From NCBI GenBank assembly GCA_947090195.1, contig CAMUND010000001.1, positions 12,236-76,235 on the forward strand: 64,000 nucleotides of DNA, in the 5' to 3' direction. Made by a program: the position numbers and the translations under genes. The stretch's first letter is position 1. Every line of letters begins with the position of its first letter. The notes under the pieces were generated by a model. The model saw only the letters and a list, made by a program, of their open reading frames with translations, had not been told where the DNA came from and ran no database searches. Below, in pieces: positions 31,685 to 49,024 of the stretch. This stretch comes from an uncultured Muribaculaceae bacterium. Its GTDB lineage: Bacteria > Bacteroidota > Bacteroidia > Bacteroidales > Muribaculaceae.

Positions 31685-32557
31685 ATGCAAAAAAGAAAAA
31701 GAAAAATTTTTTCGGGATTTACGGCACAGCTCACATCCACGGTAAGTGTCGCTTTGGTGCTGTTATTAATAGGAATAATCGCCTTCTTGGGTATTGCAGG
31801 ACGGTCGTTGACTGACAATATAAAGGAAAATATGGGGTTCAATCTTGTGTTTTCCGACAACGTGACAACCTCACAGGTGAACAGTGTGAAACAGACACTT
31901 ACATCATCGCCCAAGATAAGCAGCATACGTTATTATTCAAAGGAGGATGCCTTGAACCAGTGGCAGAAGGATACGGGGGAGGACCTTATGGCAATGCTGG
32001 GCGTGAATCCTTTCAGCGGTGAGATGGAGGTGAAGGTGAAAGCGGATTATGCCTGCACTGATTCCATCGATGCGCTTGTGGAGCAATGGCGGGGCGTGAA
32101 GTATGTAGACGAGATTGTGGTGAATGACCAGATGACCGATTCCATCAACCGCAATGTGAGGTCGATAGCTTTCGTGCTGTCCATCATAGCCGCCGCGCTG
32201 CTGTTTATATCCTTTGCGTTGATAAACAACACTGTGCGCCTTACTGTGTATTCGCGACGCTTCCTCATCCACACAATGAAGCTTGTGGGAGCGACCGGCG
32301 GGTTTATACGCCGTCCCATCGTTGCGCAAAACATGGTGAGCGGGCTTATAGCCGGGCTGGTGGCATCGCTTATACTGGGAGGCATTGTGGCTTACTTTGT
32401 GGCATCCGATCCTTCGCTTGCGGCTCTTATCCCCATCGCAGCCGGGATAATAGTGATAGCGGGGCTGATTATACTGGGAATAATCATATGCGGTGCGTCG
32501 GCTACATTCGCCACCAACAAGTATCTGCGCACTTCTTACGATAATATGTTTAACTGA
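31685..32557 (+). CDS. ftsX: Cell division permease FtsX
   Basis: TM1, periplasmic loop, ISFALINNTVRLTVYSRRFLIHTMKLVGATGGFIRRP. Confidence 0.9.
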   Translation: MQKRKRKIFSGFTAQLTSTVSVALVLLLIGIIAFLGIAGRSLTDNIKENMGFNLVFSDNVTTSQVNSVKQTLTSSPKISSIRYYSKEDALNQWQKDTGEDLMAMLGVNPFSGEMEVKVKADYACTDSIDALVEQWRGVKYVDEIVVNDQMTDSINRNVRSIAFVLSIIAAALLFISFALINNTVRLTVYSRRFLIHTMKLVGATGGFIRRPIVAQNMVSGLIAGLVASLILGGIVAYFVASDPSLAALIPIAAGIIVIAGLIILGIIICGASATFATNKYLRTSYDNMFN

Positions 32558-32567
32558 AAATAAAGAT

Positions 32568-32867
32568 ATGGCAACAAAAAACACTTATGTCCGTAATACT
32601 CCTCAGATAGAGGAAATCAATAAAGAGGAACGCCGTAATTTTCCCTTGACGAAGATTAATTTCATTCTCATGGGTATTGCGGGGGTTATAATCCTTGTGG
32701 GTTTTCTGCTGATGCTTGGAGGGAGTTCCACAACCGAGCAGTTCAACCCCGATATATTCTCTACACGCCGTATTGTGGTGGGGCCCACAATGTCGTTCTT
32801 GGGCTATATCCTCATGGGTGCCGCTATAGTGTACCGTCCGCGCAAACAGAAAGAAGTAACTGAATAA
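32568..32867 (+). CDS. DUF3098-type small membrane protein
   Basis: FPLTKINFILMG...GFLLMLGG...FNPDIFSTRRIVVGP; two TMs; sits between ftsX and uppP. Confidence 0.8.
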   Translation: MATKNTYVRNTPQIEEINKEERRNFPLTKINFILMGIAGVIILVGFLLMLGGSSTTEQFNPDIFSTRRIVVGPTMSFLGYILMGAAIVYRPRKQKEVTE

Positions 32868-32879
32868 CAGCCGTAGACT

Positions 32880-33707
32880 ATGGATTGGATAGATGCGCTT
32901 GTTTTAGGTATTGTGCAGGGACTTTCCGAATATCTTCCCATAAGTTCCAGCGGACACCTTGAGATTTTCAAACAGGTACTCGGAGTGAACCTTGACGCTG
33001 ATTCTTCGTTGGAGTTCAGCGTGATGCTTCATGTGGCTACAGTGCTTAGCACTATAGTGATTCTGTGGAGGGAGTTTTATCCTCTTGTGGTGTCGTTTTT
33101 CACGGTAAAGCGTGACGACAAGTTTTACATGGTGTGTAAAATCCTCCTTTCCTGCATCCCGGTGGGAATAGTGGGACTGTTGTTCAAGGATGAGGTGGAA
33201 CGGTTCTTCAACGGCAACCTCACAGTGGTGGGCGTGTGCCTTATCGTGACCGCCGCGTTACTTTGCTTCGCATATTTTTCACGCACACGCACTGCATTGC
33301 TGCATCCCGAACGTCCGCAGGGACGTGACATCACATGGCTGGACGCGTTCATCATAGGGTGTGCTCAGGCTGTGGCTGTGTTGCCGGGTCTTTCCCGTTC
33401 AGGCTCCACAATCGCCACCGGTATACTTCTCGGCGACAATCGTGAGCGTGTGGCTCAGTTCTCGTTCCTTATGGTTATAATCCCCATCCTCGGTGAGGGT
33501 CTTCTTGATATAAAGGACATGCTTGTGCCGCAAGAGGCGGTAGCTACCGCTTCAGTGGGTATGGTTCCGCTTGTTGTGGGTTTCTTAGCGTCGTTTATTG
33601 TGGGATGTCTTGCCTGCAAGTGGATGCTGGATATCGTTAAGAAAGGCAAGTTGGTGTGGTTTGCCGTGTATTGCGTAGCTATGGGTATTCTCTGTCTTTG
33701 CTGGTAA
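32880..33707 (+). CDS. uppP: Undecaprenyl-diphosphate phosphatase (BacA)
   Basis: GIVQGLSEYLPISSSGH, AVLPGLSRSGSTI. Confidence 0.95.
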   Translation: MDWIDALVLGIVQGLSEYLPISSSGHLEIFKQVLGVNLDADSSLEFSVMLHVATVLSTIVILWREFYPLVVSFFTVKRDDKFYMVCKILLSCIPVGIVGLLFKDEVERFFNGNLTVVGVCLIVTAALLCFAYFSRTRTALLHPERPQGRDITWLDAFIIGCAQAVAVLPGLSRSGSTIATGILLGDNRERVAQFSFLMVIIPILGEGLLDIKDMLVPQEAVATASVGMVPLVVGFLASFIVGCLACKWMLDIVKKGKLVWFAVYCVAMGILCLCW

Positions 33708-33710
33708 TCT

Positions 33711-34421
33711 ATGAATTTTATCGACGGAGAAATACTTTATATTGACAAGCCGCTCGGATGGACCTCTTTTGACGCGGTGAAGCGTGTGAGGGGTGCTATT
33801 CTGCGCAGGCTGAAGATGAAGAAATTCAAGGTGGGACACGCCGGGACGCTCGACCCGCTTGCTACCGGAGTGATGATCGTGTGCACCGGTAAAGCAACCA
33901 AGCTCATCGAGCAGTTGCAGAGCGGACGCAAGGAATATGTGGCATCGGTGGCACTTGGTGCCACTACGCCGTCATTTGACCTGGAAACCGAGATTGATGC
34001 TACTTATCCCACAGCCCACATTACCCGTGAGCTTGTGGAGGACACTTTGAAGCGTTTTGTGGGAGCGATAGAGCAAGTGCCACCGGCATTCTCGGCATGT
34101 AAGATAGGCGGTGAGCGCGCTTATGTCAAGGCTCGTCAGGGCGAGGAGGTAAACATCAAGCCCAAGCTTCTCGTTATAGATGAAATCGAGTTGCTGGACT
34201 TTGCTCCGGAACTGATAAAGATAAGGGTAGTGTGCAGCAAAGGCACTTATATCCGTGCTCTTGCCCGTGACATAGGGGAGGCTCTCGGTTCGGGAGGACA
34301 TCTTACGGCATTGAAGCGTACCCAGGTGGGTGATGTCACAGTGGACAAGTGCCTGTCGATAGAGGAGATGGCGAAACTTATAGCCACAACTCCCATAGAG
34401 ATGCCCGAGGAGGAAAATTAA
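33711..34421 (+). CDS. truB: tRNA pseudouridine(55) synthase
   Basis: IDKPLGWTSFD, KVGHAGTLDPLATG, CSKGTYIRALARDIG. Confidence 0.95.
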   Translation: MNFIDGEILYIDKPLGWTSFDAVKRVRGAILRRLKMKKFKVGHAGTLDPLATGVMIVCTGKATKLIEQLQSGRKEYVASVALGATTPSFDLETEIDATYPTAHITRELVEDTLKRFVGAIEQVPPAFSACKIGGERAYVKARQGEEVNIKPKLLVIDEIELLDFAPELIKIRVVCSKGTYIRALARDIGEALGSGGHLTALKRTQVGDVTVDKCLSIEEMAKLIATTPIEMPEEEN

Positions 34422-34463
34422 AAAATATGATTCTAAATAGCCAAAAATAGATATATACGAATT

Positions 34464-35513
34464 ATGAAACTTTCGCAATTTAAGTTTAAGCTTCCGGAAG
34501 AACTGATAGCTTCCGAGCCGTGTGTTGAACGTGACCAAGCGCGCATGTTGGTTGTCCACAAGGACACCGGAAAGATGGAGGATCTTATCTTTAAGGATAT
34601 CATCAACTTCTACAATGAAGGCGATGTGATGATATTCAATGACACCAAGGTATTCCCCGCCAAGCTCTACGGCAATAAGGAAAAGACCGGAGCTAAAATC
34701 GAAGTGTTCCTGCTCCGAGAACTTAATGAAGAAAACAAGTTGTGGGATGTGCTTGTGGAGCCTGCCCGCAAAATTCGTATCGGCAACAAGCTGTACTTCG
34801 GCGAGGATGAGTCAATGGTGGCGGAAGTGATTGACAACACCACTTCTCGCGGAAGAACTCTGCGTTTCCTCTATGACGGCGACCACGAGGAATTCAAGAA
34901 GGCGTTGTACGCTCTCGGCGAAACTCCGCTGCCCCCTTACATCAAGCGTGAGGCTACTCCCGAGGATGCTGAACGCTACCAGTGCATTTTTGCCGCAAAG
35001 GAGGGTGCCGTGGTGGCTCCTGCTGCCGGGATGCACTTCAGCCGCGAACTGATGAAGCGTCTTGAAATCAAGGGTGTGGAAGCCGGATTCCTCACGCTCC
35101 ATTCCGGTCTCGGCAACTACCGTGAAATAGATGTCGAGGACCTTACAAAGCACCGCATGGACTCGGAGGACATGGATGTGTCGGAAGAGCTTGTGGAGCT
35201 TGTGAACAAGGCTAAGGATGCTGACAAGCAAGTGTGTGCTGTGGGAGCTTCGGTTCTGCGCGGCATAGAGAGCGCGGTAAGCATGGGAGGACACATGAAG
35301 ACCTTTACCGGCTGGACCAACAAGTTTATCTTCCCGCCTTATGACTTTACGGTGTCTACCTCGCTTGTGAGCAATTTTCACATGCCGTACTCCACAATGC
35401 TGATGATGGTGTGCGCATTCGGAGGTTATGATTTGATTATGGACGCTTACCGCCATGCGATAAAGAACAAGTATCGTTTCGGTGCTTACGGCGATGCCAT
35501 GCTCATTATTTAA
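34464..35513 (+). CDS. queA: SAM:tRNA ribosyltransferase-isomerase
   Basis: [51 protein letters not shown]. Confidence 0.95.
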
Positions 35514-36106
35514 TCGACTATTGACACTCCGTCTATATCGTTTAGGCGCGCTGACAGTGCTTCGGCATGGTCAGCGCGTATTTTTATAGTCATGCGGCAA
35601 GTGATTTCAAATTCCTGCGCCACCACTTTCGGCTCCGTGGTTTTAATTACCTTCATCACGTCGTTCATGGCTATGTAGGGGAATGTGAACGTTATAGTGG
35701 ATTCTTCGTGGCACTCTATGATTTCCCCGGCGGTGATTGCCTCACGAGCGGCTTCACGGTAGGCGACTATCAAGCCGCTTGTGCCGAGTTTTATGCCGCC
35801 GAAGTAGCGCACCACCACTATCACTATATTGGTGAGGTTAAATGAGTTTATCTGCCCGAGAATAGGCTTGCCGGCTGTTCCTGACGGCTCTCCGTTGTCG
35901 TTGGACAGGAATTCGGTGCGTGCCGCACCTATCATGTAAGCCCAGCACACATGGCGTGCGTCGTGGTACTTTTTCTGGTATAAGGCTATTGTCTCTTTTG
36001 CTTCCTGCGCCGAGGACACAGGCACAGCGAAGGAGATGAATTTGCTCATCTTCTCTTTGTAAAGCCCTTCGGCAGGTGATGCGAGAGTGTAAAAAGTATC
36101 GGACAT
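35510..36106 (-). CDS. yigZ: YigZ/IMPACT family protein
   Basis: [53 protein letters not shown]. Confidence 0.9.
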
Positions 36107-36163
36107 AATCACAAAGTTAGTGATTATGCCCGATACCTTATGGATTTTTCTGATAAAACTTAT

Positions 36164-37303
36164 TTAATAAGCGTGTCCATCCTGCTCCATATCGATAGTG
36201 GTAAGCGGTTTTTTGTCCATTTTGTACCACACATAGGCAATATACGCCACCACGAACGGCACTAATATCGATACAAAGCTCATCACTTTCAGGGTGAACA
36301 GTGTGGAGGAACTGTTGTAGATGGTAAGCGAGCTTGCCGGGTCGATAAGTGACGGGTAATAGGGAGTATTGTTATAGCCTGCCACCCAGAAGAGCGACAA
36401 TACCACAAGCACGGTGCCTAAACCGCATGACCAGATGCCTTTGTGGTACTTCTTGCCGAGTGCGGTGCGGATGATGCCGTGAAGCACGAGCAGCACGCCA
36501 ACTACAAACGCCAAGAGCGCCCACCACAGGTGGATGTAATTGAAGAAGTATTTGTGTGCCACGTCAGTCACAATCTTGCCGTCGATAATCTCATAACCGT
36601 CAGCGCAGAACAAAAGTCCCACAAAAAACAGGAAGAATACTACGAATATCAGTCCGTTGACAGCCACTTGTGTGCGTTGCTGACGGTAGAAGCCGTCGCC
36701 GGCGTTGATGTTGCTGATGAAGTAAAGAGAGCCGGTGGTGCGGGCAAGGAATACCACGGCAAGTCCGAGTATCCAGTTTTTCCAGCAGAAGATAGCCTCA
36801 AAACCGTGGGTGGGTGCCCATTGCGATATCACAGGTGCGCCTGAGTCGAGGATATTTCCCATCTTGACTGTGAATTGCGCTCCGAAGAAGAACATGGACA
36901 CTGCAACGCCCAGCAGGAAGCATCCCACACAGCCGTTTATCATCAATAGCCAGTCGTAGAAACGTGTTCCGTAAAGATTTCCGGCTTTGCGGCGGTACTG
37001 GAAGCTCACAGCCTGTCCTACAAAGGAGAAAAGTATAAGCATCCACAGCCAATAGGCTCCTCCGAAGCTGGTGCTGTAGAACAGCGGGAACGAAGCGAAG
37101 AATGCGCCTCCGAACACTACAAGGGTCGTGAATGTAAGCTCCCACTTTTTACCGATGGAGTTGACCATGAGGTCACGGTAAGTGGAGTTACGTTCGGTCA
37201 GTAACATGGTTTGTCCTCCTTGCACGAATAGAAGGAACACCAGCAGTGCGCCAAGCACTGAGATTAAAAACCACCAATATATCTGAAGATGTTCTAATGC
37301 CAT
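36164..37303 (-). CDS. cydB: Cytochrome bd ubiquinol oxidase subunit II
   Basis: FVQGGQ, WELTFTTLVVFGGAFFASFPLFY, SLTIYNSSSTLFTLKVM. Confidence 0.92.
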   Translation of the reverse strand: MALEHLQIYWWFLISVLGALLVFLLFVQGGQTMLLTERNSTYRDLMVNSIGKKWELTFTTLVVFGGAFFASFPLFYSTSFGGAYWLWMLILFSFVGQAVSFQYRRKAGNLYGTRFYDWLLMINGCVGCFLLGVAVSMFFFGAQFTVKMGNILDSGAPVISQWAPTHGFEAIFCWKNWILGLAVVFLARTTGSLYFISNINAGDGFYRQQRTQVAVNGLIFVVFFLFFVGLLFCADGYEIIDGKIVTDVAHKYFFNYIHLWWALLAFVVGVLLVLHGIIRTALGKKYHKGIWSCGLGTVLVVLSLFWVAGYNNTPYYPSLIDPASSLTIYNSSSTLFTLKVMSFVSILVPFVVAYIAYVWYKMDKKPLTTIDMEQDGHAY

Positions 37304-37306
37304 GGC

Positions 37307-38878
37307 TTAATCATTTGAAAGTTCTACAATATCCTTCTTGGACTTCTTGTTGATTTGGGTCAGCATGATGCTTACTTCAGCGGCGAGAAGCACGGTGAAG
37401 ATGACCGCAAACATGAAGAAGGTGATAATAACCGACGAAGCGGCTATGTCGCTGATAGCGGCGCGTGTGGGCATGAGGTCCTGGATGACCCAAGGCTGAC
37501 GACCTACTTCGGCGGTTATCCAGCCGCTCTGTGAACAAATCCACACAACAGGTATCGACAGCATTCCTATCCACTGCACCACTTTGTTGTTAAGCCATGC
37601 CTGACGCTTGTAAACACCTATCAGCGCGACAATGAAGAACAACAGCAGATAACCGCCTGCGATAACCATGATGCGGAAGGCATAGAAGGTAAGTGCTACC
37701 GGCGGAATAGCTTCGGTGGGGCTGTCAAGGTAGCCGTAGCCGAAGTATTGATAATTCTCACGTAGCTTTACAAGCGAACTGTCCATCCCGGCTTGGTTCC
37801 CTTCGGCGTAAGCGTTGTCGTAGGCGCGTAGTGCTTCATGGGCTTCTTTTCCCATGGCAATGCGCTCAGTGTAGCCCACAGTCCTGATGGTGTCGCCGTT
37901 TTCGTCCATGCCTATGCCATGCACAAGGTCATATATGCCCGGCACGAAGGCGTGAGGGTCATGGGTCGCAAGAAATGACAGTCCGTAGGGGATGCTTATG
38001 TGGAACAAATAGGGGTCCTCGTTGTTGTCCACCTTTTTGGCGGGGTTGATTATGCCCACAGCCACAAGCTCCTGATTGCGGTTGCCGTGGTAGAGACCTT
38101 CCATCGCGGCAAGTTTCATGGGTTGTTTTGCAGCTACGTTGACTGCCGAGAGGTCGCCTGTGGCAAGTGTGATGATTATGCCGGCGAATCCCACCCATGT
38201 GCCTACCTTGATGGATGACATGGCGAGTTCGACGTTGCGCTTTTTCAGAAGGAACCAGCAGCTGACTCCTACCACAAACACTCCCGCAAGCACCCATGCG
38301 CTTGAAACGGTGTGGGTGAATTTAGCTATCGCAGTGGATGAGAACACCAATGCCCAGAAGTCGTCCATGACATTGCGCATCTGCGCCGGGTCAAATTCCA
38401 TTCCCACCGGCTGCTGCATCCAGGCGTTCGCCACAAGAATCCAGAGGGCGGACAGTGCTGTTCCGATAGCGGTGAGCCATGTGGCGGCAAGGTGAAATCC
38501 GGGGCTGAAACGTTTCCATCCGAAGAACATCACGGCAATGAATGTCGACTCCATGAAGAACGCAAGGATTCCCTCGATGGCAAGCGGCGCGCCGAATATG
38601 TCGCCCACAAACCAGCTGTAGTTGGACCAGTTGGTCCCGAATTCAAATTCAAGAATAATTCCGGTAGCCACTCCTATCGCGAAATTGATTCCGAAAAGAA
38701 GCATCCAGAACTTTGTCATCGCCAGCCATTTTTGGCTCTTGGTTTTGACATACACACTCTCCATGATAGCCACAATGAGAGCAAGCCCTATGGTCAGCGG
38801 CACAAATAGCCAGTGATACATAGCGGTAAGCGCAAATTGCCATCTGGACCAGTCCACAACGGTTACTAAATCATCCAT
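37307..38878 (-). CDS. cydA: Cytochrome bd ubiquinol oxidase subunit I
   Basis: SRWQFALTAMYHWLFVPLT, EFEFGTNWS, LAIEG, ILVANAWMQ, QPMKLAAMEG, GWITAEVGRQPW. Confidence 0.95.
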   Translation of the reverse strand: MDDLVTVVDWSRWQFALTAMYHWLFVPLTIGLALIVAIMESVYVKTKSQKWLAMTKFWMLLFGINFAIGVATGIILEFEFGTNWSNYSWFVGDIFGAPLAIEGILAFFMESTFIAVMFFGWKRFSPGFHLAATWLTAIGTALSALWILVANAWMQQPVGMEFDPAQMRNVMDDFWALVFSSTAIAKFTHTVSSAWVLAGVFVVGVSCWFLLKKRNVELAMSSIKVGTWVGFAGIIITLATGDLSAVNVAAKQPMKLAAMEGLYHGNRNQELVAVGIINPAKKVDNNEDPYLFHISIPYGLSFLATHDPHAFVPGIYDLVHGIGMDENGDTIRTVGYTERIAMGKEAHEALRAYDNAYAEGNQAGMDSSLVKLRENYQYFGYGYLDSPTEAIPPVALTFYAFRIMVIAGGYLLLFFIVALIGVYKRQAWLNNKVVQWIGMLSIPVVWICSQSGWITAEVGRQPWVIQDLMPTRAAISDIAASSVIITFFMFAVIFTVLLAAEVSIMLTQINKKSKKDIVELSND

Positions 38879-38899
38879 GCTTACTGTATTTTTAATTGA

Positions 38900-39115
38900 T
38901 TAACGATTATTTTCAATCAGATGTGTCCTCACGGCTTGTGCCCGTTGTTCATCGTTGTCATAGTCGCGCTGAAGCAAATCAGGGAAAAAGAACAGCTTCA
39001 TGACGAAAAATAAGATGAACAGCTTCACGATGATCAACAACCACAGGTATCTGCCCACTGTCATTGACTTGAATCCATCGGCATAAAACGTATATATGCG
39101 CTTTAATAACTGCAT
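38900..39115 (-). CDS. DUF4492-type small membrane protein
   Basis: IYTFYADGFKSMTVGRYLWLLIIVKLFILFFVMKLFFFP; directly upstream of cydA. Confidence 0.82.
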   Translation of the reverse strand: MQLLKRIYTFYADGFKSMTVGRYLWLLIIVKLFILFFVMKLFFFPDLLQRDYDNDEQRAQAVRTHLIENNR

Positions 39116-39214: not shown

Positions 39215-39536
39215 TTAACTTATGTCCTCTTTTGCTGATGCGTACCGGGTGGGGGTGACCCCAAACATCTCTTTAAATGAGTTTGAGAAATGTGAAGGGT
39301 TGGCGAATCCGGTTGCATAAGCCACTTCAGCCACGCTCAGTTTCTTTTCTTTGAGAAGCAGTGCCGCCTGGCGCATCCTGATGCTCTTTATGAAGTCACG
39401 TGCCGAGAGGTCAGTGTTCTCTTTAAGCTTGCGGTGCAGATGGGCGCGGCTCAGTCCCGCTGCCGCAGCGAGTTTTTCCACTCCGAAGTCAGGGGAGGCT
39501 ATGTTTTCGTTTATAACAGCCATAACTTTGTTCATA
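39215..39536 (-). pseudogene. C-terminal AraC HTH fragment, probably of a hybrid two-component system regulator (5' truncated)
   Basis: MNKVMAVINENIASPDFGVEKLA...LSRAHLHRKLK...AEVAYATGFANPSHFSNSFKEMFGVTP; an in-frame TGA lies 2 codons upstream of the Met, inside foreign GH10 sequence. Confidence 0.8.
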
Positions 39537-39971
39537 GGTCATGTGGACGGTATCGGCACTCAGATGCACGTGTCCAAGTCCATCACCAAAGAACAGGTGG
39601 ATGCGATGTTCAAGACTCTTGCCGCTACAGGTAAACTCGTTCGTGTCACTGAGCTTGATGTGGCTCTCGGAACTTCTACTCCGTCAGCCGGAGAATTGCA
39701 GACTCAGAGCGACGTTTATAAGATGATTCTTACTTCATTCTTCGAGAATGTCCCCGAAGCGCAGCAGTCAGGCATTACTATCTGGGGTCTCAGCGACAAA
39801 GCCAACGAACACGAATACTGGCTGAACGGCGATGCTCCTAACTTGTTTGATGCCGACTATGCCCGCAAGACAGCTTATAAGGGAGTGTGCGATGCCATTG
39901 CCGGATTCGATTTGTCCACTGAATTCAGCGGCGACGACTGGAAGGATGTAGCACCCGCTCCGGAAGAGTAA
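39537..39971 (+). pseudogene. C-terminal third of a GH10 xylanase (Xyn10C-like), 5' truncated
   Basis: GHVDGIGTQMHV, VRVTELDV (nucleophile), GITIWGLSD, APNLFDADYARKTAY; no acid/base WDVVNE motif, signal peptide or promoter. Confidence 0.85.
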
Positions 39972-40014: not shown

Positions 40015-40046
40015 AAGGGGGAGGCTTCATGAGCCTCCCCCTTTTT
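40015..40046 (+). terminator. Rho-independent terminator after the GH10 fragment
   Basis: AAGGGGGAGGCT-TCATG-AGCCTCCCCCTT followed by T tract. Confidence 0.8.
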
Positions 40047-40153
40047 GTATAATGTTACATGAGCAAAGATTTTTGTTACACTACATACGCTATATGACAC
40101 CTTATTAAAGATTCATGTAACAATTGCCTATTGTGGGGTAATGTATAAAAATG

Positions 40154-40161
40154 TAATTTTG
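40154..40161 (+). promoter_or_regulatory. Bacteroidetes -7 box for the xylan enzyme operon
   Basis: TAATTTTG 20 bp upstream of ATG 40181. Confidence 0.6.
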
Positions 40162-40180: not shown

Positions 40181-41881
40181 ATGTCCAAAAAGTTTTTTGC
40201 CATATTGGCGTTCATCGCCGTTATTTGCTTTTCTGTTCAAGCTTCCGACATAAAGCTCGTTCCTAAAGGGAACGCTGCTCAATTGTCGGTCGACGGTGCG
40301 CCCATGCTTATTCTCGGCGGGGAGCTTGGCAATAGTTCGGCATCGTGTGCCGCCGATATCGAGAGCATTTTCCCAAAACTGCGTAGGATGAATCTTAACA
40401 CCGTCCTTGTGCCGACTTATTGGGACATGATTGAGCCTGTGGAAGGGCAGATGGATTACTCTCTCACTGAAAAAGTGATAGATGAGGCAGTGAAAAACAA
40501 TCTCAAAGTGGTGTTTCTGTGGTTTGGAGCATGGAAAAATTCCATGAGTTGTTATGCTCCGGAATGGTTTAAGGCTGATTGGAAAAAATATCCCCGTGCC
40601 TGCACCAAGGCTGGGAAACCACTCGAAATTGCGAGTGCTTTTTCGGAGAATGTGTTCAGGGCTGACAGCACGGCGTTTTCACGCTGGCTCACCCATGTTG
40701 ATCAATACGACAAGCACGGCACAGTGCTTATGATACAGATTGAGAACGAAATAGGAATGCTTGAGGATGCTCGTGACTACTCCGCCGCAGCCCGGCGTGA
40801 TTACGATGAAGGAGTGCCGGCGCAACTTATCTCGTTCATCTCAAAAAACAAGAAATCACTCCATCCTTCGTTGCTCAACCGATGGAAAGAGCACGGGATG
40901 AAGAAATCAGGCTCATGGGCTGAGGTGTTTGGCGACGACATCTACACCGATGAGTATTTCATGGCATGGAACTATGCCCGTTATGTGGAGCGGCTTGCAC
41001 GCACTGCACGTGCCATAACCTCACGTCCGCTCTATGTCAATGCCGCCATGAACAGCCGCGGCAGAAAGCCCGGCGAATATCCTTCGGCAGGTCCGCTTGC
41101 CCATCTGAAGGACATATGGCATTCTGCGGCTCCATCAGTCGATTTCCTTTCGCCTGATCTTTACGACAAGGGATTTATCGACTGGATAGAGCAATATTCT
41201 ACTCCTGGCAATGTACTTTTCGTACCCGAAATAAGACGATTCGACGGCAATGCCGCGCAGGCATTTTACGTTATCGGTGAAAAAGATGCTATAGGTTTAA
41301 GCCCGTTCTCGATTGAGAATGGTTCGGACAGTCCTGATGCCGCGTCGGTTAAGGGATATGCTCTTCTCGACAGGATGCAGCCTCTCCTTCTTGCGCATCA
41401 GGGCGACGGCTCGATGAACGGACTTTATTTTGACAATGATTCGATAGAGCGTGTGCTCTATCGTGACGGGATGAAGATTACCGCCAACCACTACTTCACC
41501 TTGCCTTGGGATCCGAGAGCCACCGACGGCTCTGAATGGCCTACGGTGGGGGGAGTGATAATCCGCATTGCTCCCCGCGAATACATTGTAGCCGGGAGCG
41601 GGCTGGTTGTCAAGTTTGAGGACGAGTCGGAGACTGCCGTTGCCCGCAAACTGGGCGAGGACGGATTCCTTGACAGCGGCGATGACCGTAAAGCTTCGGA
41701 GGCGTGGAAAGGCACCGGGCGCATTGGGCTTGCATCAGTGGACGAGGTGGATGTGAATCCTGACGGCTCGTTGAAATTCCTGCGTCGCTTCAATGGCGAT
41801 GAAACCCATCAGGGGCGGCATGTCAGGATAGGTGTCGACGACTTCAAAATTCTACATGTGAAACTCTACGACTATAAATAA
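40181..41881 (+). CDS. GH35-like beta-galactosidase with DUF5597-type C-terminus
   Basis: Signal peptide, ILGGELGNSS, WFGAWKNSMSCYAPEW, IQIENEIG (acid/base), FVPEI (nucleophile). Confidence 0.8.
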   Translation: MSKKFFAILAFIAVICFSVQASDIKLVPKGNAAQLSVDGAPMLILGGELGNSSASCAADIESIFPKLRRMNLNTVLVPTYWDMIEPVEGQMDYSLTEKVIDEAVKNNLKVVFLWFGAWKNSMSCYAPEWFKADWKKYPRACTKAGKPLEIASAFSENVFRADSTAFSRWLTHVDQYDKHGTVLMIQIENEIGMLEDARDYSAAARRDYDEGVPAQLISFISKNKKSLHPSLLNRWKEHGMKKSGSWAEVFGDDIYTDEYFMAWNYARYVERLARTARAITSRPLYVNAAMNSRGRKPGEYPSAGPLAHLKDIWHSAAPSVDFLSPDLYDKGFIDWIEQYSTPGNVLFVPEIRRFDGNAAQAFYVIGEKDAIGLSPFSIENGSDSPDAASVKGYALLDRMQPLLLAHQGDGSMNGLYFDNDSIERVLYRDGMKITANHYFTLPWDPRATDGSEWPTVGGVIIRIAPREYIVAGSGLVVKFEDESETAVARKLGEDGFLDSGDDRKASEAWKGTGRIGLASVDEVDVNPDGSLKFLRRFNGDETHQGRHVRIGVDDFKILHVKLYDYK

Positions 41882-41892
41882 ATGTATCAACA

Positions 41893-43593
41893 ATGAGATA
41901 TCTGAAATTCTTAACCTTAACTACCTTGCTTGCCGGGTCACAGATGGCTCTGGAGGCAAAAGTGACTCTCCCTCACCTTATTTCATCGGGGATGGTGGTG
42001 CAGCGTAATCAGCCCGTGAAGCTGTGGGGCAAAGCTGACCCTTCCGAGGCGGTAAATGTAAAAGTCGCCAAGGGAAAATCGGCAAGCACAGTGGCTGATG
42101 CTGACGGTAATTGGAGCGTTTCGCTTCCTGCGCTTAAAGTCGGCGGTCCCTATACCATCACTATCAATGACATAACTCTTGACAATGTGATGTCGGGCGA
42201 TGTGCTTCTTTGCTCCGGTCAGTCCAATATGGAATTGCCGGTACGTCGTGTCACTGACATGTTTGCCGAGGAAATTGCTTCCTATGACAATCCCAATATC
42301 CGTCATTTCAGAGTTCCGAATGTGTTTGAGTTTCATGGGCCTAAGGACGATGTCGACGGCTCTTGGAAGGAGTTGACTCAGGACAATGTGATGAACTTCA
42401 GCGCGCTCGGCTATTTCATCTCGAAGGCTCTTTATGAGGAAACGGGAGTGCCTGTGGGCATTATCAATTCAAGCTGGGGCGGTACCCCTGTCGAGGCATG
42501 GATTAGCGAGGAGTATCTTGCTCCTTATCCTCGCGCCATCAACGAGAAACGCCTTTATGAGGACGACGGATACCGTGACCGCATCAAGAAACTCGAAGGC
42601 GAGAACTACGCGCGCTGGAACAATGTGCTTTATCTCAGCGATCCGGGACTGCATGGCGCGGTGAAATGGATGGAGCCTGATTTCGACGACTCTTCATGGA
42701 TTGAGGTGGACTTGATAAGCGGAAATAGCGTGACTGACGGAACTGTCACCGGCGATGACCTGCACAATGCCTGGCGCGGTGCACAATGGGCTACTGACGG
42801 GCTTAATCCCGTGAACGGCTCCCACTGGTTCCGTAAAAACATCAATCTCACTACCGAGCAGGCTTCAAAACCGGCTGTGCTTCGCTTGGGATGCATCGTG
42901 GATGCCGACTCGGTATATGTGAACGGTGTATTTGTGGGCACTACAAGCTACCAGTATCCTCCACGTATATATAATGTGCCTGCCGGAGTGCTCAAAGAAG
43001 GTAAAAATAATGTTACTGTAAGGCTCTTTAGCCAGAACGGTCAAGGGCATTTTGTGGCTGAAAAGCCTTATTGCCTTATTTTAGGCGATGAACGCATCGA
43101 CCTTACCGGCAATTGGCGTTACAACCGCGGTGCGGCTATGACCCCCGGCCCCGGGATGGTGTTCTATTGCTATAAACCCACTGTGCTTTATAATGCCATG
43201 ATACATCCGCTGATCAATGTGCCTGTTTCGGGCGTTGTGTGGTACCAAGGGGAGTCCAATGTTTCACGCCGCAATGAATATGCTTCTTTGCTTGAAACCA
43301 TGATGGCTAACTGGCGTGACTCGATGAATAATCCTGAATTGCCGTTCTATATAGTGGAACTTGCTGACTTCCTCCACTCTTCCGACAAGCGGGGACGCGC
43401 GTCATGGGCTGAAATGAGAAAGCAGCAGGCTAAAGCCGCGGAGGACACCCCCAACGCTTATCTGATTCCGAATTCTGACCTCGGGGAATGGAATGATATC
43501 CATCCTCTCAACAAGAAGACTCTCGGCAATCGTGTCGTGAAAGCAGTGATAGCTCATGACCCTACAATCGTGAATAATAAAAAGAAAAAATAA
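41893..43593 (+). CDS. SGNH/SASA-family O-acetylesterase (sialate O-acetylesterase-like, likely xylan deacetylase)
   Basis: LCSGQSNMEL, SSWGGTPVEAW, VWYQGESN, NDIHPLNKKTLG; catalytic domain split by a beta-sandwich insert. Confidence 0.85.
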   Translation: MRYLKFLTLTTLLAGSQMALEAKVTLPHLISSGMVVQRNQPVKLWGKADPSEAVNVKVAKGKSASTVADADGNWSVSLPALKVGGPYTITINDITLDNVMSGDVLLCSGQSNMELPVRRVTDMFAEEIASYDNPNIRHFRVPNVFEFHGPKDDVDGSWKELTQDNVMNFSALGYFISKALYEETGVPVGIINSSWGGTPVEAWISEEYLAPYPRAINEKRLYEDDGYRDRIKKLEGENYARWNNVLYLSDPGLHGAVKWMEPDFDDSSWIEVDLISGNSVTDGTVTGDDLHNAWRGAQWATDGLNPVNGSHWFRKNINLTTEQASKPAVLRLGCIVDADSVYVNGVFVGTTSYQYPPRIYNVPAGVLKEGKNNVTVRLFSQNGQGHFVAEKPYCLILGDERIDLTGNWRYNRGAAMTPGPGMVFYCYKPTVLYNAMIHPLINVPVSGVVWYQGESNVSRRNEYASLLETMMANWRDSMNNPELPFYIVELADFLHSSDKRGRASWAEMRKQQAKAAEDTPNAYLIPNSDLGEWNDIHPLNKKTLGNRVVKAVIAHDPTIVNNKKKK

Positions 43594-43613: not shown

Positions 43614-45032
43614 ATGGATGCAATTAGCTCTATGGCGCCTTCAGCTGCGGCTGAAAAAGGCTTTTACAAGCTCAGCTGGATACAACGCTTCGGGTTTGGC
43701 TCGGGTGACCTCGCCCAAAATCTTATCTATCAGACAATCAGCATGTATTTGCTGTTTTTCTACACCAATGTCTATGGTCTTTCACCGGCTGCCGCCGCTG
43801 TGATGTTCCTTATCGTCCGAATTGTCGATGTGATTTGGGATCCCTTGGTGGGAACTTTCGTTGACAAGCATAATCCCACTTTAGGAAAATACCGTGCTTA
43901 TCTGGTATTGGGCGGTATTCCTTTGACCGGATTCGCTCTGCTCTGTTTCTGGAACGGATTTTCCGGTTCTCTGGTGTATGCTTATATTACTTATGTGGGA
44001 CTTTCCATGTGCTACACACTTGTGAATGTGCCTTACGGCGCACTTAATGCTTCGCTCACCCGTGATACTAATGAAATTACCATCCTTACCTCTGTGCGTA
44101 TGTTCATGGCTAATGTGGGTGGTCTTGCCGTAGGTATGGGTATTCCTATCATCTTGCGCCTTTTTGACCCCGGAGAGACTGAGGATATGTCGACCAGCGA
44201 TGCTGCTTGGTTCTCTACCATGGCTATATACGGTCTTATCGGTCTTGCCCTTCTCTTCTTCTGCTTCTCGCAGTGCCGCGAAAGAGTGGTAATGGACCGC
44301 AAGGAGACTGAAAACGTTAAGGTTTCCGACCTTTGGCTGGAATTTGTGCGCAATCGTCCATTGCGTATTCTTGCCTTCTTCTTCATCACCGCTTTCGGAT
44401 TGATGGCTATCAGTAACTCCGCAGGAGCTTATTATATCAACTACAACCTGCATGGCAATGCCGCCGAGTTGTCCATATTCATGGGGTTGGGTTCTATTCC
44501 GGCGTTTATCTTCATGCCGCTTATCCCGGCTATCAAGCGTCAGGTGGGTAAGAAAGGTATGTTCTACATCTTCTTGATGACTGCTATTGTGGGTATGGGG
44601 CTATTGTATGCTATCTCCATGATTGACGCTTTGAAACAGCACATGTGGCTTGTCTACGTGGCTCAGTTTGTGAAGTCTACAGGTATCATCGTTGCTACAG
44701 GCTACATGTGGGCGTTGGTTCCTGAGGTTATCTCTTATGGTGAATACACTCACGGCAAACGTATATCCGGAATTGTGAACGCGCTCACAGGTATCTTCTA
44801 CAAAGCCGGTATGGCTCTCGGTGGTGTAGTTCCGGGACTTGTATTGGCATGGGTAGACTTTGACAGCGAACTTCCTGTGCAGACTCCTCTTGCCGAACAA
44901 GGTATTCTGTGGCTTGTGGCTGTTATTCCTGCCGCCCTTCTCATCGTGGCTATGCTCATCATCTCACGCTATGAACTTGACGATGACCGCATCGATGCTA
45001 TTAATGCCGAGATTGAAGCACGACATAAATAA
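43614..45032 (+). CDS. GPH-family (MFS) sugar:cation symporter, XynT-like
   Basis: FGFGSGDLAQN, RIVDVIWDPLVGTFVD, GKYRAYL, VNVPYGAL; about 12 TM. Confidence 0.9.
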   Translation: MDAISSMAPSAAAEKGFYKLSWIQRFGFGSGDLAQNLIYQTISMYLLFFYTNVYGLSPAAAAVMFLIVRIVDVIWDPLVGTFVDKHNPTLGKYRAYLVLGGIPLTGFALLCFWNGFSGSLVYAYITYVGLSMCYTLVNVPYGALNASLTRDTNEITILTSVRMFMANVGGLAVGMGIPIILRLFDPGETEDMSTSDAAWFSTMAIYGLIGLALLFFCFSQCRERVVMDRKETENVKVSDLWLEFVRNRPLRILAFFFITAFGLMAISNSAGAYYINYNLHGNAAELSIFMGLGSIPAFIFMPLIPAIKRQVGKKGMFYIFLMTAIVGMGLLYAISMIDALKQHMWLVYVAQFVKSTGIIVATGYMWALVPEVISYGEYTHGKRISGIVNALTGIFYKAGMALGGVVPGLVLAWVDFDSELPVQTPLAEQGILWLVAVIPAALLIVAMLIISRYELDDDRIDAINAEIEARHK

Positions 45033-45049
45033 TAAACTAAGTATAGATT

Positions 45050-46174
45050 ATGAAGAAGATATTTTTGGCGGCGATTGCCGTGGCTGCACTTTGTGCATGT
45101 AGTTCAACTCGCAAGGAGGAAGCGCACGAGCTTACTCTAAAGGATATGTTGGGCGATAAATTCCTTATCGGTACTGCTATGAACCTCAATCAGATATTGG
45201 GGATTGACTCAGTGGGAGCCGAAGCTGTGGCTAAACATTTTAATTCAGTGGTTGCTGAGAATGTGATGAAATGCGAGGAAATCCATCCTGAGGAGGACAA
45301 GTACTTCTGGGACGATGCCGACCGTTTTGTTGAGTTTGGCGAGAAGAACGGCATGACCATTATAGGTCACTGCCTGGTTTGGCATTCTCAGTGCGCGCCT
45401 TGGTTCTGTGTCGATGACAAAGGCGAACTTGTGGACAAAGAGACTTTGAAGAATAGGCTCCGTGACCACATCCACACTATTGTTGGGCGTTATAAAGGCC
45501 GTGTGCATGGCTGGGATGTAGTGAACGAGGCTATTGTCGAGGATGGTTCTTACCGTAACAGTCAGTTCTATCAGATTCTCGGTGAAGAGTTCATTCCGCT
45601 TGCTTTCCAGTATGCTCATGAGGCTGACCCTGATGCCGAGTTGTACCTCAATGACTACGGTATGAATGTCGAAGGTCGTAGAAACACTTACCTTAAGATT
45701 ATCAATGACCTCAAGTCCAAGGGACTTAGAATCGATGCTATAGGTATGCAGAGCCATCTCGGAATGGATTATCCTGACTTTGAAGAGTATGAAAAGTCGC
45801 TTGAGGCTTATGCCGCCACCGGATGTAAGGTTATGATTACCGAGCTTGACATGAGCGCGCTTCCCTCTATTAATTTCGGAGCCAACATCGCCGACACTGT
45901 TGCGTTCAAGGCTGCTATGAATCCTTATCCCGAAGGAATACCTGATAGCGTAAGCATTGCATGGAACGACCGCATGGCTAAGTTCATGGATCTCTACATC
46001 CGTCATGCCGATGATATTTCACGCGTGACAGCTTGGGGCGTTTCCGACGGCGACTCCTGGAAAAATGACTGGCCTATGCCGGGACGTACCGACTATCCTC
46101 TGCTGCTCGACCGTAAGTATCAGATTAAGCCGTTCCTGACTAAGTACGACTCTGTTGAAACAAAAAATAGTTAA
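45050..46174 (+). CDS. GH10 endo-1,4-beta-xylanase (lipoprotein)
   Basis: Lipobox LCAC; [37 protein letters not shown]. Confidence 0.95.
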
Positions 46175-46205
46175 CTGAATTACATAACTTTAATATATTG
46201 ATTAT

Positions 46206-47177
46206 ATGAAAACAAAAAAACGTTATCTGTTTCCTGCCGATTATATGGCTGACCCTTCAGTGCATGTGTTTAACGGTAAGATTTATATATATCCGTCTCA
46301 TGACTGGGAATGTGAAAATGTGGAGAACGACAATGGCGACCAATATGTAATGAAGGACATGCACGTCCTTTCCACTGATGACCCCATGAATGGTGAAGTC
46401 ATTGACCATGGCAAGGCGCTTGACATTGCTGATGTTCCTTGGGCTGGTCGTCAGTTGTGGGACTGCGACTGCGCTGAAAAGGACGGAAAGTATTACCTTT
46501 ACTTCCCTTTGAAGGACAAGAACGATATATTCCGCATAGGTGTGGCTATCGCCGACAAGCCCGAAGGTCCGTTTATTCCCCAGCCTGATCCTATCAGAGG
46601 AAGCTACAGCATGGACATCTGCGTATTCCCCGAGGACGGTGAATATTATCTTTACTTCGGTGGACTCTGGGGCGGACAACTTCAGCGTTACCGTGACAAC
46701 AAGGCTCTTGAATGCGCCGAACTTCCCGAAGGTGCTGAACCTTCGCTGCCGAGCCGTGTAGTGCGTCTTACCAAGGACATGCTGCAGTTTGCCGAGGAAC
46801 CGCGTCCCGTTCAGGTTGTGGACGAGGACGGAAATCCGCTTCGTGCCGATGACCCGCACCGCTTCTTTGAAGCAAGCTGGCTGCATAAGTACAACGGTAA
46901 GTATTACTTCTCTTACTCTACAGGCGATTCTCACTTGCTATGCTACGCCATAGGCGACAATCCTTACGGTCCTTTCACTTATAAGGGCGTGATTCTTACC
47001 CCCGTGGTTGGATGGACAACCCACCACAGTATCATCGAATACAAGGGCAAGTGGTATCTCTTCCATCATGACAGCGTGCCTTCCGGCGGCAAGTCATGGC
47101 TCCGCAGCCTTAAGGTGTGTGAGATTACTTATACCCCCGATGGATTGATTGAAACTATTGACGGTATTGACGAATAA
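46206..47177 (+). CDS. GH43_1 beta-xylosidase/arabinofuranosidase (no signal peptide)
   Basis: YMADPSVHVF, IYPSHD, LYFGGLWGGQLQ, FFEASWLHKY, WTTHHSI. Confidence 0.92.
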   Translation: MKTKKRYLFPADYMADPSVHVFNGKIYIYPSHDWECENVENDNGDQYVMKDMHVLSTDDPMNGEVIDHGKALDIADVPWAGRQLWDCDCAEKDGKYYLYFPLKDKNDIFRIGVAIADKPEGPFIPQPDPIRGSYSMDICVFPEDGEYYLYFGGLWGGQLQRYRDNKALECAELPEGAEPSLPSRVVRLTKDMLQFAEEPRPVQVVDEDGNPLRADDPHRFFEASWLHKYNGKYYFSYSTGDSHLLCYAIGDNPYGPFTYKGVILTPVVGWTTHHSIIEYKGKWYLFHHDSVPSGGKSWLRSLKVCEITYTPDGLIETIDGIDE

Positions 47178-49024
47178 TGAAGAATACTGTTCTCGCTGTT
47201 TTCTTGTCGGCGGCAGTGTGTGCCGGGGCATCGACGCGTGACGATTCTTATAGGATTATACCGGGTAATCCGGCTAAGGTGGAAGCCGCTACCCCTATGG
47301 GGAAAATGTATGGCGACTTCCATCTTAATCGCTTAAAAGCCATGGGAATCACGCCGGCTGACACCATTGTGGAGTCGCCTGAATTTGAGTTGCGTATCCT
47401 AAACCACTGGGATAACCTTGACGGAACTATCGAGAGGGGATATGCCGGTCGCAGTATATGGGATTGGGAATCTCTTCCTGATTCTGTTTCTCCGCGTTAC
47501 GAGGACTATGCCCGCATCTGCGCTTCGGTGGGAATCAACGGCGCTGTGCTTAATAATGTCAATGCGTCGTCTAAGATTCTGTCCCATGATTATCTGGTTA
47601 AGGTCGCCAAGATAGCCGATGTGCTGCGCCCCTACGGGATAAAAGTGTATCTTTCCGCTAATTTTGCGGCTCCCATGCAGCTTGACAGCCTTCCCACTGC
47701 CGATCCTCTCGATAAAAAGGTGGCTAAGTGGTGGAAGAAGAAAGCTGATGAAATATACAAGCTTATACCTGACTTCGGTGGATTCCTTGTAAAGGCAAAT
47801 TCCGAAGGACAGCCCGGACCGTGTGACTTTAACCGCACTCATGCTGAGGGTGCCAACATGATGGCTAAGGCTTTGAAGCCTCACGGAGGCATAGTGATGT
47901 GGAGAGCATTCGTGTATTCGGCTAATGACGCTGACCGCGCCAAGCAAGCTTACATGGAATTCAAGCCGCTCGACGGAAAGTTTGCCGACAATGTTATCGT
48001 CCAGATAAAGAACGGTCCCATCGACTTTCAGCCCCGCGAACCTTACAGTCCGCTGTTCCATGGCATGGAGAAGACCAAGGTGATGCCTGAGTTCCAGATT
48101 ACACAGGAATATTTGGGACACAGTAACCATCTTGCCTATCTTGCGCCCATGTGGACGGAATTTTTCGATTATGTGTCGCCTGACGGCATGAAGGCTATAG
48201 CCGGTGTGGCTAATGTGGGCGATTCGCCTAATTTCACTGCTCATCCCTTTGCGTTTGCCAACTGGTACGCTTTCGGTCGTCTTGCCTGGGATCCGACACT
48301 TTCGCCGGAACAGATAGCCCGTGAGTGGGTGGCTCTAAACCTTGACGTAAAATCGCCCGAGGCGGTGGACCGCATTGTGAAGATGATGCTTGATTCCCGA
48401 GAAGCTGTCGTGGACTACATGATGCCTATGGGACTTCATCACATCTTTGCGTGGGGACACCATTACGGTCCTGAACCGTGGTGCGATGTGCCGGGCGCAC
48501 GTCCTGACTGGATGCCGTCCTACTATCACCGTGCTGACTCCACCGGAATAGGTTTTGACCGTACTTCCAAGGGAAGCAACGCAGTAGGGCAATATCCCGC
48601 CGAGTTTGCGGCTTTGCTTGACAATCCTGCCACATGCCCCGAGAAGTTCCTGCTTTGGTTTCATCACCTCCCGTGGGACTATAAACTGCCGTCAGGTATG
48701 ACTGTGTGGGAAGCTTTGTGCCGCCACTATGAGGATGGTTGTGACCGTGCTGTGGACTTTTTGCGCACGTGGGTGCAGTGTGAACCCGATATTGCCGACA
48801 AAGCGTTGTGGAATGACGTGCATCAACGTCTCCTCACTCAGGCTAAAGATGCGCAGTGGTGGAAGGATGCATGTCTGCAGTACTTCGCGCAGTTCCACAA
48901 TCTTCCTTATCCGGAATTTGTGACACCTGCCTTCACTTCGCTTGAAGAGCTTGAAAAAGTGCAGTTAGGCATTGACAATTACACTTGTCCGTCAGCTGAA
49001 CTCCTTGACTCGAAACGTCGCTAA
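47177..49024 (+). CDS. aguA: GH67 alpha-glucuronidase
   Basis: ILNHWDNLDGTIERGYAG, FLVKANSEGQPGP, MWRAFVY, IKNGPIDFQPREP, EFQITQEYLG, LLWFHHLPW. Confidence 0.93.
   Translation: MKNTVLAVFLSAAVCAGASTRDDSYRIIPGNPAKVEAATPMGKMYGDFHLNRLKAMGITPADTIVESPEFELRILNHWDNLDGTIERGYAGRSIWDWESLPDSVSPRYEDYARICASVGINGAVLNNVNASSKILSHDYLVKVAKIADVLRPYGIKVYLSANFAAPMQLDSLPTADPLDKKVAKWWKKKADEIYKLIPDFGGFLVKANSEGQPGPCDFNRTHAEGANMMAKALKPHGGIVMWRAFVYSANDADRAKQAYMEFKPLDGKFADNVIVQIKNGPIDFQPREPYSPLFHGMEKTKVMPEFQITQEYLGHSNHLAYLAPMWTEFFDYVSPDGMKAIAGVANVGDSPNFTAHPFAFANWYAFGRLAWDPTLSPEQIAREWVALNLDVKSPEAVDRIVKMMLDSREAVVDYMMPMGLHHIFAWGHHYGPEPWCDVPGARPDWMPSYYHRADSTGIGFDRTSKGSNAVGQYPAEFAALLDNPATCPEKFLLWFHHLPWDYKLPSGMTVWEALCRHYEDGCDRAVDFLRTWVQCEPDIADKALWNDVHQRLLTQAKDAQWWKDACLQYFAQFHNLPYPEFVTPAFTSLEELEKVQLGIDNYTCPSAELLDSKRR

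Follow-up and report, generated by a model that had tools for sequence, protein, structure and literature searches.

The closest described relatives of the locus treated here are xylan polysaccharide utilization loci (PULs) of Bacteroides. PUL-XylS of B. ovatus ATCC 8483 (BACOVA_04385-94) has a hybrid two-component system regulator (HTCS) gene divergent from the genes coding SusC, SusD, a surface glycan-binding protein (SGBP) and a surface GH10 xylanase interrupted by a CBM4_9 module, after which come a major facilitator superfamily (MFS) transporter, a periplasmic GH10, a GH43 and a GH67. The surface GH10, SusD, SusC and HTCS are missing from 11 of 23 B. ovatus/B. xylanisolvens strains, which keep the intracellular half (Rogowski et al. 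2015, PMC4491172), and the version found in B. xylanisolvens XB1A was named a PUL remnant, rPUL 70 (Despres et al. 2016, PMC4855328). Knockout of the HTCS of the other xylan PUL represses rPUL 70 in XB1A (PMC4855328). A locus of this kind is present in the stretch of DNA analysed here (the window), 64,000 nucleotides from an uncultured Muribaculaceae bacterium (assembly GCA_947090195.1, contig CAMUND010000001.1, positions 12,236 to 76,235 of the forward strand). It carries the scar of an 11,854-bp deletion of the front end of a PUL-XylS-type locus, next to a retained and probably autonomous operon that is likely under the control in trans of the HTCS encoded on contig C12 of the same assembly.

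As in rPUL 70 and the 'group B' strains of B. ovatus/B. xylanisolvens, the genes for GH67, GH43, the small GH10 and the MFS transporter are kept while those for the surface CBM4-GH10, SGBP, SusD, SusC and HTCS are lost. The intracellular core (GH67, GH43, small GH10, transporter) is contiguous at 43614-49024 and is accompanied by a GH35-like and an esterase gene. Beside it there is no susC/susD, HTCS or surface CBM-GH10 gene, only two stumps of 106 and 144 aa, and a larger xylan PUL with its own HTCS is found elsewhere in the genome (C12:18803-51567). Control of the remnant by the HTCS of the other PUL was shown in XB1A and is suggested here by shared operators. The window differs from rPUL 70 by its origin in Muribaculaceae, not Bacteroidaceae, which makes the loss an independent one, and by the two extra genes of its operon (GH35-like and SASA esterase). 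The large PUL of B. ovatus has a catalytically inactive GH10, whereas the GH10 of the C12 locus keeps both catalytic motifs. Compared to PUL-XylS of ATCC 8483, the intact allele of this locus (see below) has the same parts list and logic; the window copy lacks the first five components, and the order of its back half differs and includes the GH35-like and esterase genes. The type of event is thus already known from Bacteroides and the window provides an independent instance in another family, no new kind of system. New here is that two in-frame stumps still mark the scar, that its breakpoints are known to the base and that an intact sister allele, ~1.5% diverged, exists in the species.

The scar is composed of three features:

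39215..39535, minus strand: HTCS stump, codons for the final 106 residues (1245-1350) of the 1350 aa in the intact protein, with a complete two-HTH (helix-turn-helix) AraC-type DNA-binding domain
39536: junction base A, unlike both flanks of the intact allele, which have G (HTCS) and C (GH10)
39537..39971, plus strand: GH10 stump, the last 144 codons (residues 474-617) of a surface endo-xylanase of family GH10 interrupted by CBM4_9

Starting with MNKVMAVINENI, the minus-strand stump aligns with positions 1-78 of the 80 in the Pfam profile HTH_18 (E 3e-25). No domain other than HTH_18/HTH_AraC was found in a Pfam profile search of its 106 aa: it lacks the Reg_prop/Y_Y_Y sensor, HisKA, HATPase_c and Response_reg domains and so does not qualify as a HTCS. 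Its ATG is a native internal Met codon of the HTCS (...DEVL-MNKVMAV...). The plus-strand stump (GHVDGIGTQMH...VTELD...) covers no more than positions 198-310 of the 311 in the Pfam profile Glyco_hydro_10 (E 3.4e-21). Aligned to full-length orthologues at the protein level, the AraC stump is homologous from M1 onwards and the GH10 stump from G1/H2. The nucleophile motif VTELD is present in the GH10 stump, but the acid/base motif WDVINE, which lies within the deleted residues 1-473, the CBM (carbohydrate-binding module) and the signal peptide are gone. The stump therefore does not have the two catalytic glutamates (WDVxNE and TELD) of an active GH10 and, as judged from its motifs, cannot be an enzyme. 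A search of the 700 nt upstream of the AraC stump ATG for a minus-strand Bacteroidetes -7 box (TAnnTTTG) gave none. Both stumps are best taken as inert remnants, because the GH10 piece has neither the acid/base residue nor the export signal and no promoter could be detected for the AraC piece. The first-pass annotation of this DNA, which was made from the letters and their open reading frames, had an AraC carboxyl terminus abutting a GH10 carboxyl terminus at 39536/39537; this is confirmed, with the precision that the single base A at 39536 separates the two. Its 144-codon GH10 piece with a terminator of its own was also correctly read, a hairpin being found past the stop codon at 40015-40043.

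The intact form of the locus was found in the same species. The available protein search was limited to matches of query-like length; each stump was hence grafted on the amino-terminal part of its orthologue in congener G019 and the stump region alone was scored. This led to a HTCS of 1350 aa (P0001), 98% identical to the AraC stump and with all HTCS domains present, and to a GH10 of 617 aa with an inserted CBM4_9 (P0121), identical in protein sequence (100%) to the GH10 stump. The resemblance of the stumps to these genes is not due to chance, given their 98-100% protein identity to the ends of full-length genes. The contigs coding P0001 have the order cydA, DUF4492 and HTCS, the latter divergent from SusC (1051 aa), SusD (566 aa), a SGBP_B_XBD protein (470 aa) and GH10, while the P0121 contig reads SusD, SGBP, GH10 with the CBM4_9 inserted, and GH35. 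At the DNA level the intact allele is 98.55% identical to the window on the HTCS side (14 mismatches in 966 bases), where the match ends exactly at 39535, and 98.48% identical on the GH10 side (30 mismatches in 1975), where it begins exactly at 39537. Position 39536 is a third codon position on both sides (CTC Leu in the HTCS gene, GGC Gly in the GH10 gene). The A is thus either a 1-nt filler or an inherited synonymous third-position variant of one of the two genes. Comparison with the intact allele at both breakpoints revealed no microhomology or repeats of 2 nt or more. A TCAT...TCAT pair was considered as a recombination signature and rejected since both copies are retained.

The deletion amounts to 11,854 bp, the summed lengths of genes and gaps being equal to the distance between breakpoints in the composite intact sequence. 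The deleted material is as follows:

3732 bp: HTCS codons 1-1244 (periplasmic sensor, kinase, receiver)
375 bp: divergent promoter/operator intergenic region
3156 bp: SusC
1701 bp: SusD
1413 bp: SGBP (SGBP_B-type surface glycan-binding protein)
1419 bp: surface GH10 codons 1-473
58 bp: short gaps between genes

The intact allele thereby bears out the proposal made from the sequence that the sensor, SusC/SusD and most of the surface xylanase were lost, and the sizing by alignment to relatives with the full PUL that had been suggested as a check gives the loss to the base. Note that the intact-allele Logan contigs (L044-L055) all end at two places, 555 nt into the surface GH10 gene and at the window equivalent of 38570-38594 in cydA. 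This suggests branching of the assembly graph where co-occurring strains of the two lineages converge.

The organization of the locus in the genus leads to the same conclusion. A search with both stumps across whole genomes from the genus gave full-length orthologues in seven other species, with a HTCS of 1346-1366 aa and a GH10 of 783-800 aa encoded on the same contig about 12-13 kb apart. Synteny was mapped in four of those species: the HTCS gene is divergent from SusC (~1050 aa), SusD (~560 aa), a ~480-aa lipoprotein and the surface GH10 (~780 aa), behind which come the GH35-like, SASA esterase, MFS transporter, small GH10, GH43 and GH67 genes, that is, the genes found after the stumps in the window. 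Together with the intact allele these seven congeners uphold the single large deletion across a divergent HTCS/susCD-GH10 arrangement that had been supposed. The retained core has the same synteny in the 10 congeners examined. The left flank, outside the PUL, is also conserved:

38900-39115, minus strand: DUF4492
37307-38878, minus strand: cydA
36164-37303, minus strand: cydB

These neighbours (36164..39115) also adjoin the HTCS stop codon in the intact allele and in G019, where cydA and cydB lie beyond the HTCS gene as they do in the window. In three congeners the operon has neither an adjacent HTCS nor adjacent SusC/D, and there are no stumps; one of them, G014, also lacks the esterase:

G043:C1:1020268-1029481: stand-alone operon
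G016:C6:92561-101710: stand-alone operon
G014:C1:83563-91300: stand-alone operon, no esterase

No orthologue of the XylS-type HTCS was found in G016 and G014. Species of the genus thus differ in whether they possess the front-end module. The finding is in favour of viewing xylan loci as two separable modules, a surface/uptake/sensing front end that is dispensable and repeatedly lost, and an intracellular back end that is kept and probably wired in trans to another sensor.

The junction is real and misassembly is excluded for practical purposes. The first-pass annotation had kept open an assembly or concatenation artefact. In such a case two unrelated contig ends would have been joined, or a repeat collapsed, and the draft status of the genome (112 contigs) leaves room for an artefact of assembly or binning. 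However, the exact 60-mer across the junction is found inside 17 contigs from 17 different runs and assemblies, made with different assemblers and including ENA contigs of 142 kb and 149 kb; 13 of these carriers were retrieved by exact-protein look-ups with the AraC stump and the DUF4492 gene and four with the GH67 gene. An index of the collection lists the stump protein in 71 blocks. Outside the junction region the carriers differ from the window by 0 to 1%, with strain-level single-nucleotide polymorphisms in the flanks, and are therefore different strains and not copies of one assembly. Nor could one shared mis-joined reference lie behind them, the Logan and ENA assemblies being de novo. 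Both flanks are syntenic with congeners. The missing HTCS 5' part and susCD were to be sought on other contigs: a tblastn search of the whole 112-contig assembly with the G019 proteins retrieved paralogues only (HTCS, 38% identity on C12; SusC, 48% on C7; SusD, 33%), with no match near the ~70% identity expected of orthologues. The probability left for an artefact is negligible. It is equally close to nil for a reversed polarity, in which the sister lineage gained an 11.85-kb module, or for a mobile or phase-variable segment excised reversibly. What speaks for these is that both alleles occur in runs of one series (DRR8488xx); yet the genes whose truncated ends form the stumps are full length in the other allele and in seven other species, a situation that only a deletion can create. 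The segment has no terminal repeats, att-like sites or recombinase, and carriers of the two alleles are ~1.5% apart in both flanks and hence represent separate lineages, not phase variants.

The retained operon is formed by six genes:

40181..41881, plus strand: GH35-family/DUF5597 glycosidase, first gene of the operon (NCBIfam GH35_fam 7e-184; Pfam DUF5597)
41893..43593, plus strand: SASA-type (CE6-like) carbohydrate esterase, probable acetyl-xylan esterase (Pfam SASA 3e-22)
43614..45032, plus strand: MFS_2 glycoside/xyloside symporter of the inner membrane (Pfam MFS_2 1.7e-104)
45050..46174, plus strand: small GH10 xylanase of 374 aa with a lipoprotein signal (Pfam GH10 7e-91; both catalytic motifs)
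46206..47177, plus strand: GH43 of the beta-xylosidase/arabinofuranosidase type (Pfam GH43 1.5e-22)
47177..49024, plus strand: GH67 alpha-glucuronidase, the sole copy of the genome (Pfam GH67M, GH67C)

The small GH10 corresponds to the periplasmic GH10 of PUL-XylS. The region between the GH10 stump and the first operon gene contains the following elements:

40015..40043, plus strand: intrinsic terminator of the former surface-GH10 transcript (13-bp stem with 8 GC pairs, T tract)
40054..40121, plus strand: candidate HTCS operator, a direct repeat GTTACAT-N14-GTTACAC with a 21-bp period
40154..40161, plus strand: Bacteroidetes-type -7 box TAATTTTG, 19 nt upstream of the GH35-like start codon

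The terminator folds with a minimum free energy of -36.6 kcal/mol (z = -5.5 versus shuffles) and is predicted to insulate the GH10 stump from the operon. The distances from the two operator repeats to the downstream -7 box are 100 and 79 bp, and the repeats are followed by a degenerate third unit and a minus-strand GTTACAT heptamer. The repeat pattern occurs once in the 64-kb window, where 0.1 occurrences are expected; at least one match was obtained in 10 of 100 shuffles. A period of about 21 bp also characterizes the predicted HTCS motifs of Bacteroides, which are direct repeats (PMC3878776). The same two-heptamer geometry, with a 21-bp period and distances of 99 and 78 bp to the -7 box, is found at the susC promoters of the orthologous PULs of G017 and G011, and the deleted susC promoter has it as well (GCAACAT-N14-GCAACAT, 99 and 78 bp from its -7 box). 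The GH35-esterase-MFS-GH10-GH43-GH67 operon is likely an autonomous transcription unit; terminator, -7 box and operator array support the view, already taken in the first reading of the sequence, that it keeps a promoter of its own.

The source of the activator is suggested by comparison of operators. The window operator matches C12:20683 at 26 of 31 core positions and at 53 of 75 over the extended stretch, both sites having their -7 box at an equal distance, and C12:18658 is also near-identical; against the deleted susC promoter the values are 18 of 31 and 41 of 75. An extended motif, GTTACATGNNNAAAGANNTTTGTTACA (up to 2 mismatches), has six sites in the genome, four of which are the window promoter and three promoters of the C12 locus, and a reversed-pattern control gave 0 matches in 31 genomes. 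The extended motif alone is taken as operator evidence, the core heptamer pair being unspecific. The extended motif is also found on the contig holding the second xylan locus in G016, G043, G004 and G015. The congeners that have the operon alone (G043, G016 and G014) carry three or four phased heptamers at -100, -79 and -58, plus -36 in G016. The operon is probably driven in trans by the C12 HTCS, because the GTTACAY operator is common to its promoter and to promoters of the C12 locus. The array constitutes a candidate HTCS operator for xylan regulons of Muribaculaceae. Phased GTTACAY pairs with a 21-bp period are found at C12:18658, C12:20683, C12:37081, C15:33212, C67:12898, C61:6842 and C78:135. 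Several PUL promoters of the genome carry one, including that of the fructan-type locus on C61 (GH32, MFS and a HTCS with a periplasmic-binding domain). The pair may represent a general half-site for the DNA-binding domains of HTCSs of the genus, with specificity residing in the spacer.

Taken together, in an account that is very probable as a whole, a single illegitimate 11,854-bp deletion removed the sensor/uptake/surface-xylanase front end of a PUL-XylS-type locus, leaving the stumps back to back. The six-gene operon would run as a unit of its own, driven in trans by the C12 HTCS through the phased GTTACAY operator, and the bacterium would lose the XylS-type capture and sensing of simple xylans while keeping its xylan-degrading equipment. 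A free-standing operon served by a C12-type HTCS would explain why loss of the front end did not strand the operon. Several points weigh against this account. Support for the junction is of one kind, independent assemblies, and the intact locus is a composite of two contigs from different samples that overlap over 2,706 bp at 98.3% identity; a single contig spanning cydA to GH35 in the intact allele was not seen. The case for control by the C12 HTCS is likewise made by a single line of evidence, promoter similarity, and the GTTACA heptamer pair also occurs at the fructan locus (C61) and inside coding regions, so that its core is not xylan-specific. The lost HTCS may have been the main activator, as its susC promoter shares the operator architecture. 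Finally, the GH67 has 615 aa and is ~55 aa shorter in its amino-terminal domain than the G017 orthologue in the alignment. The open frame of this gene has 674-723 aa in all 15 congeners that carry it. The shortened gene keeps its signal peptide and reading frame and represents a second in-frame shortening in this locus; the retained operon itself could be starting to decay.

These last points feed the one competing account that deserves some weight, although it is improbable: the operon was orphaned with the loss of its activator, the deleted HTCS, is now silent or expressed at a basal level and decays, and the lineage depends either on nothing but the C12 locus or on others to release oligosaccharides. 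The common repeat geometry means that the lost HTCS could have served both promoters, the GH67 is short, and similar half-loci were judged 'likely non-functional' by Rogowski et al. (PMC4491172). Against it, the six open reading frames are intact in every strain seen, and G043, G016 and G014 keep operon and operator array without an adjacent HTCS or SusC/D, the last two lacking any orthologue of the XylS-type HTCS. The operator is moreover nearer to C12 promoters than to the deleted one, and the equivalent remnant of B. xylanisolvens is expressed under the HTCS of the other PUL (PMC4855328). A much less probable reading assigns activity to the AraC stump. The receiver domain of HTCSs inhibits the DNA-binding domain, and breaking this latch leads to constitutive DNA binding (PMC11253607, PMC13292587). 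Freed from it and expressed by read-through transcription, the 106-aa domain would be a small SoxS/MarA-like constitutive activator acting on the GTTACAY operator 500 bp away and possibly on the C12 locus too; a single deletion would then have rewired an inducible xylan regulon to constitutive expression. End-to-end alignments with MarA and SoxS (positions 8-104 of 107 in the latter) are obtained for the stump, which has the size and domain content of these proteins (a complete two-HTH domain), a native ATG and an open frame in all strains. It differs from them by its origin through truncation and by the lack of a recognisable promoter, and its scores of 38-44 bits are far below the NCBIfam SoxS/MarA cut-offs of 174-250. 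The missing -7 box counts against activity, as does the fact that the DNA upstream of the stump is antisense of the GH10 stump. Two derived changes, V26A and R59L, affect residues conserved in all orthologues aligned, and the youth of the deletion explains the open frame equally well, the GH10 stump being intact too. Such activity is hence very unlikely, and the account preferred remains that of inert stumps beside an operon served by the C12 HTCS.

The second xylan PUL bears on whether the bacterium could be a scavenger:

C12:18803-51567: second xylan PUL (PUL-XylL-type), complete

It codes two GH43-type proteins, SusC-SusD-SusC-SusD, a DUF5627/BT_3987-like (SGBP-like) lipoprotein, a GH10 of 739 aa, a CBM4_9 protein, two esterases, a GH43-CBM6 protein, a second GH43-like protein (28.7% identical to the window GH43), a GH97, a GH95 and a HTCS of 1366 aa. 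The GH10 carries both catalytic motifs (WDVVNE, VTELD), has acidic residues after its lipoprotein signal and is apparently an active surface enzyme. Two more GH10 genes are located on C17 and C90. The suggestion that the strain could be a scavenger of xylo-oligosaccharides (a cheater) rather than a primary degrader finds no support in the gene content, because the C12 PUL is complete with an apparently active GH10 and further GH10s are encoded on C17 and C90. The lineage lost one of two uptake and sensing systems and is probably still equipped for xylan degradation.

The deletion is judged young relative to the ~1.5% split between alleles, because neither stump has begun to decay. The AraC stump differs from the intact allele by seven synonymous and two non-synonymous changes, the latter (V26A and R59L) derived in the deletion lineage as judged from two closer outgroups and all aligned orthologues, and the GH10 stump by seven synonymous and no non-synonymous changes. 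The intact GH35 gene has 16 synonymous and six non-synonymous differences between alleles. Relaxed selection in the stumps was considered and rejected, the 14 synonymous to two non-synonymous changes being not different from GH35 (16 to 6). Almost all divergence of the stumps is thus older than the deletion. The carriers form a close clade (~99.9% identical) of a Muribaculaceae species in which the deletion is fixed, and the intact sister lineage, ~1.5% diverged, belongs to the same species. Both alleles are found within one accession series, the deletion in DRR848885 and DRR848778, and the intact form in DRR848815, DRR848817, DRR849014 and others. The locus is a natural example of modular PUL loss caught early, at base resolution, and the two lineages provide an isogenic-like pair for testing the contribution of the XylS front end in the gut.

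A local selective sweep around the deletion was envisaged from the first 13 carriers, which have seven variable sites at 37.2-45.1 kb versus 1-2% divergence in the flanks. It was dropped: with nine further contigs, ~0.1% turned out to be the usual divergence between carriers from 37 to 59 kb, which makes outliers of the 2% patches. Such patches of ~2% divergence with sharp edges are located at 31900-37151 (ftsX to cydB) and, in contigs L042 and L043, at 45166-46084 (small GH10). Their appearance suggests import by homologous recombination from a diverged lineage.

The intergenic region that holds the operator in the window has a different content in congeners with the full PUL. In G017 (L023 17941-18103), and also in G011 and G022, the gap between the surface GH10 and GH35 genes has no GTTACA heptamers. 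The same gap features a 20-bp perfect inverted repeat (CAAAATACAGAAGAACTAAG ... CTTAGTTCTTCTGTATTTTG) around ~100 nt that contain a -7 box.

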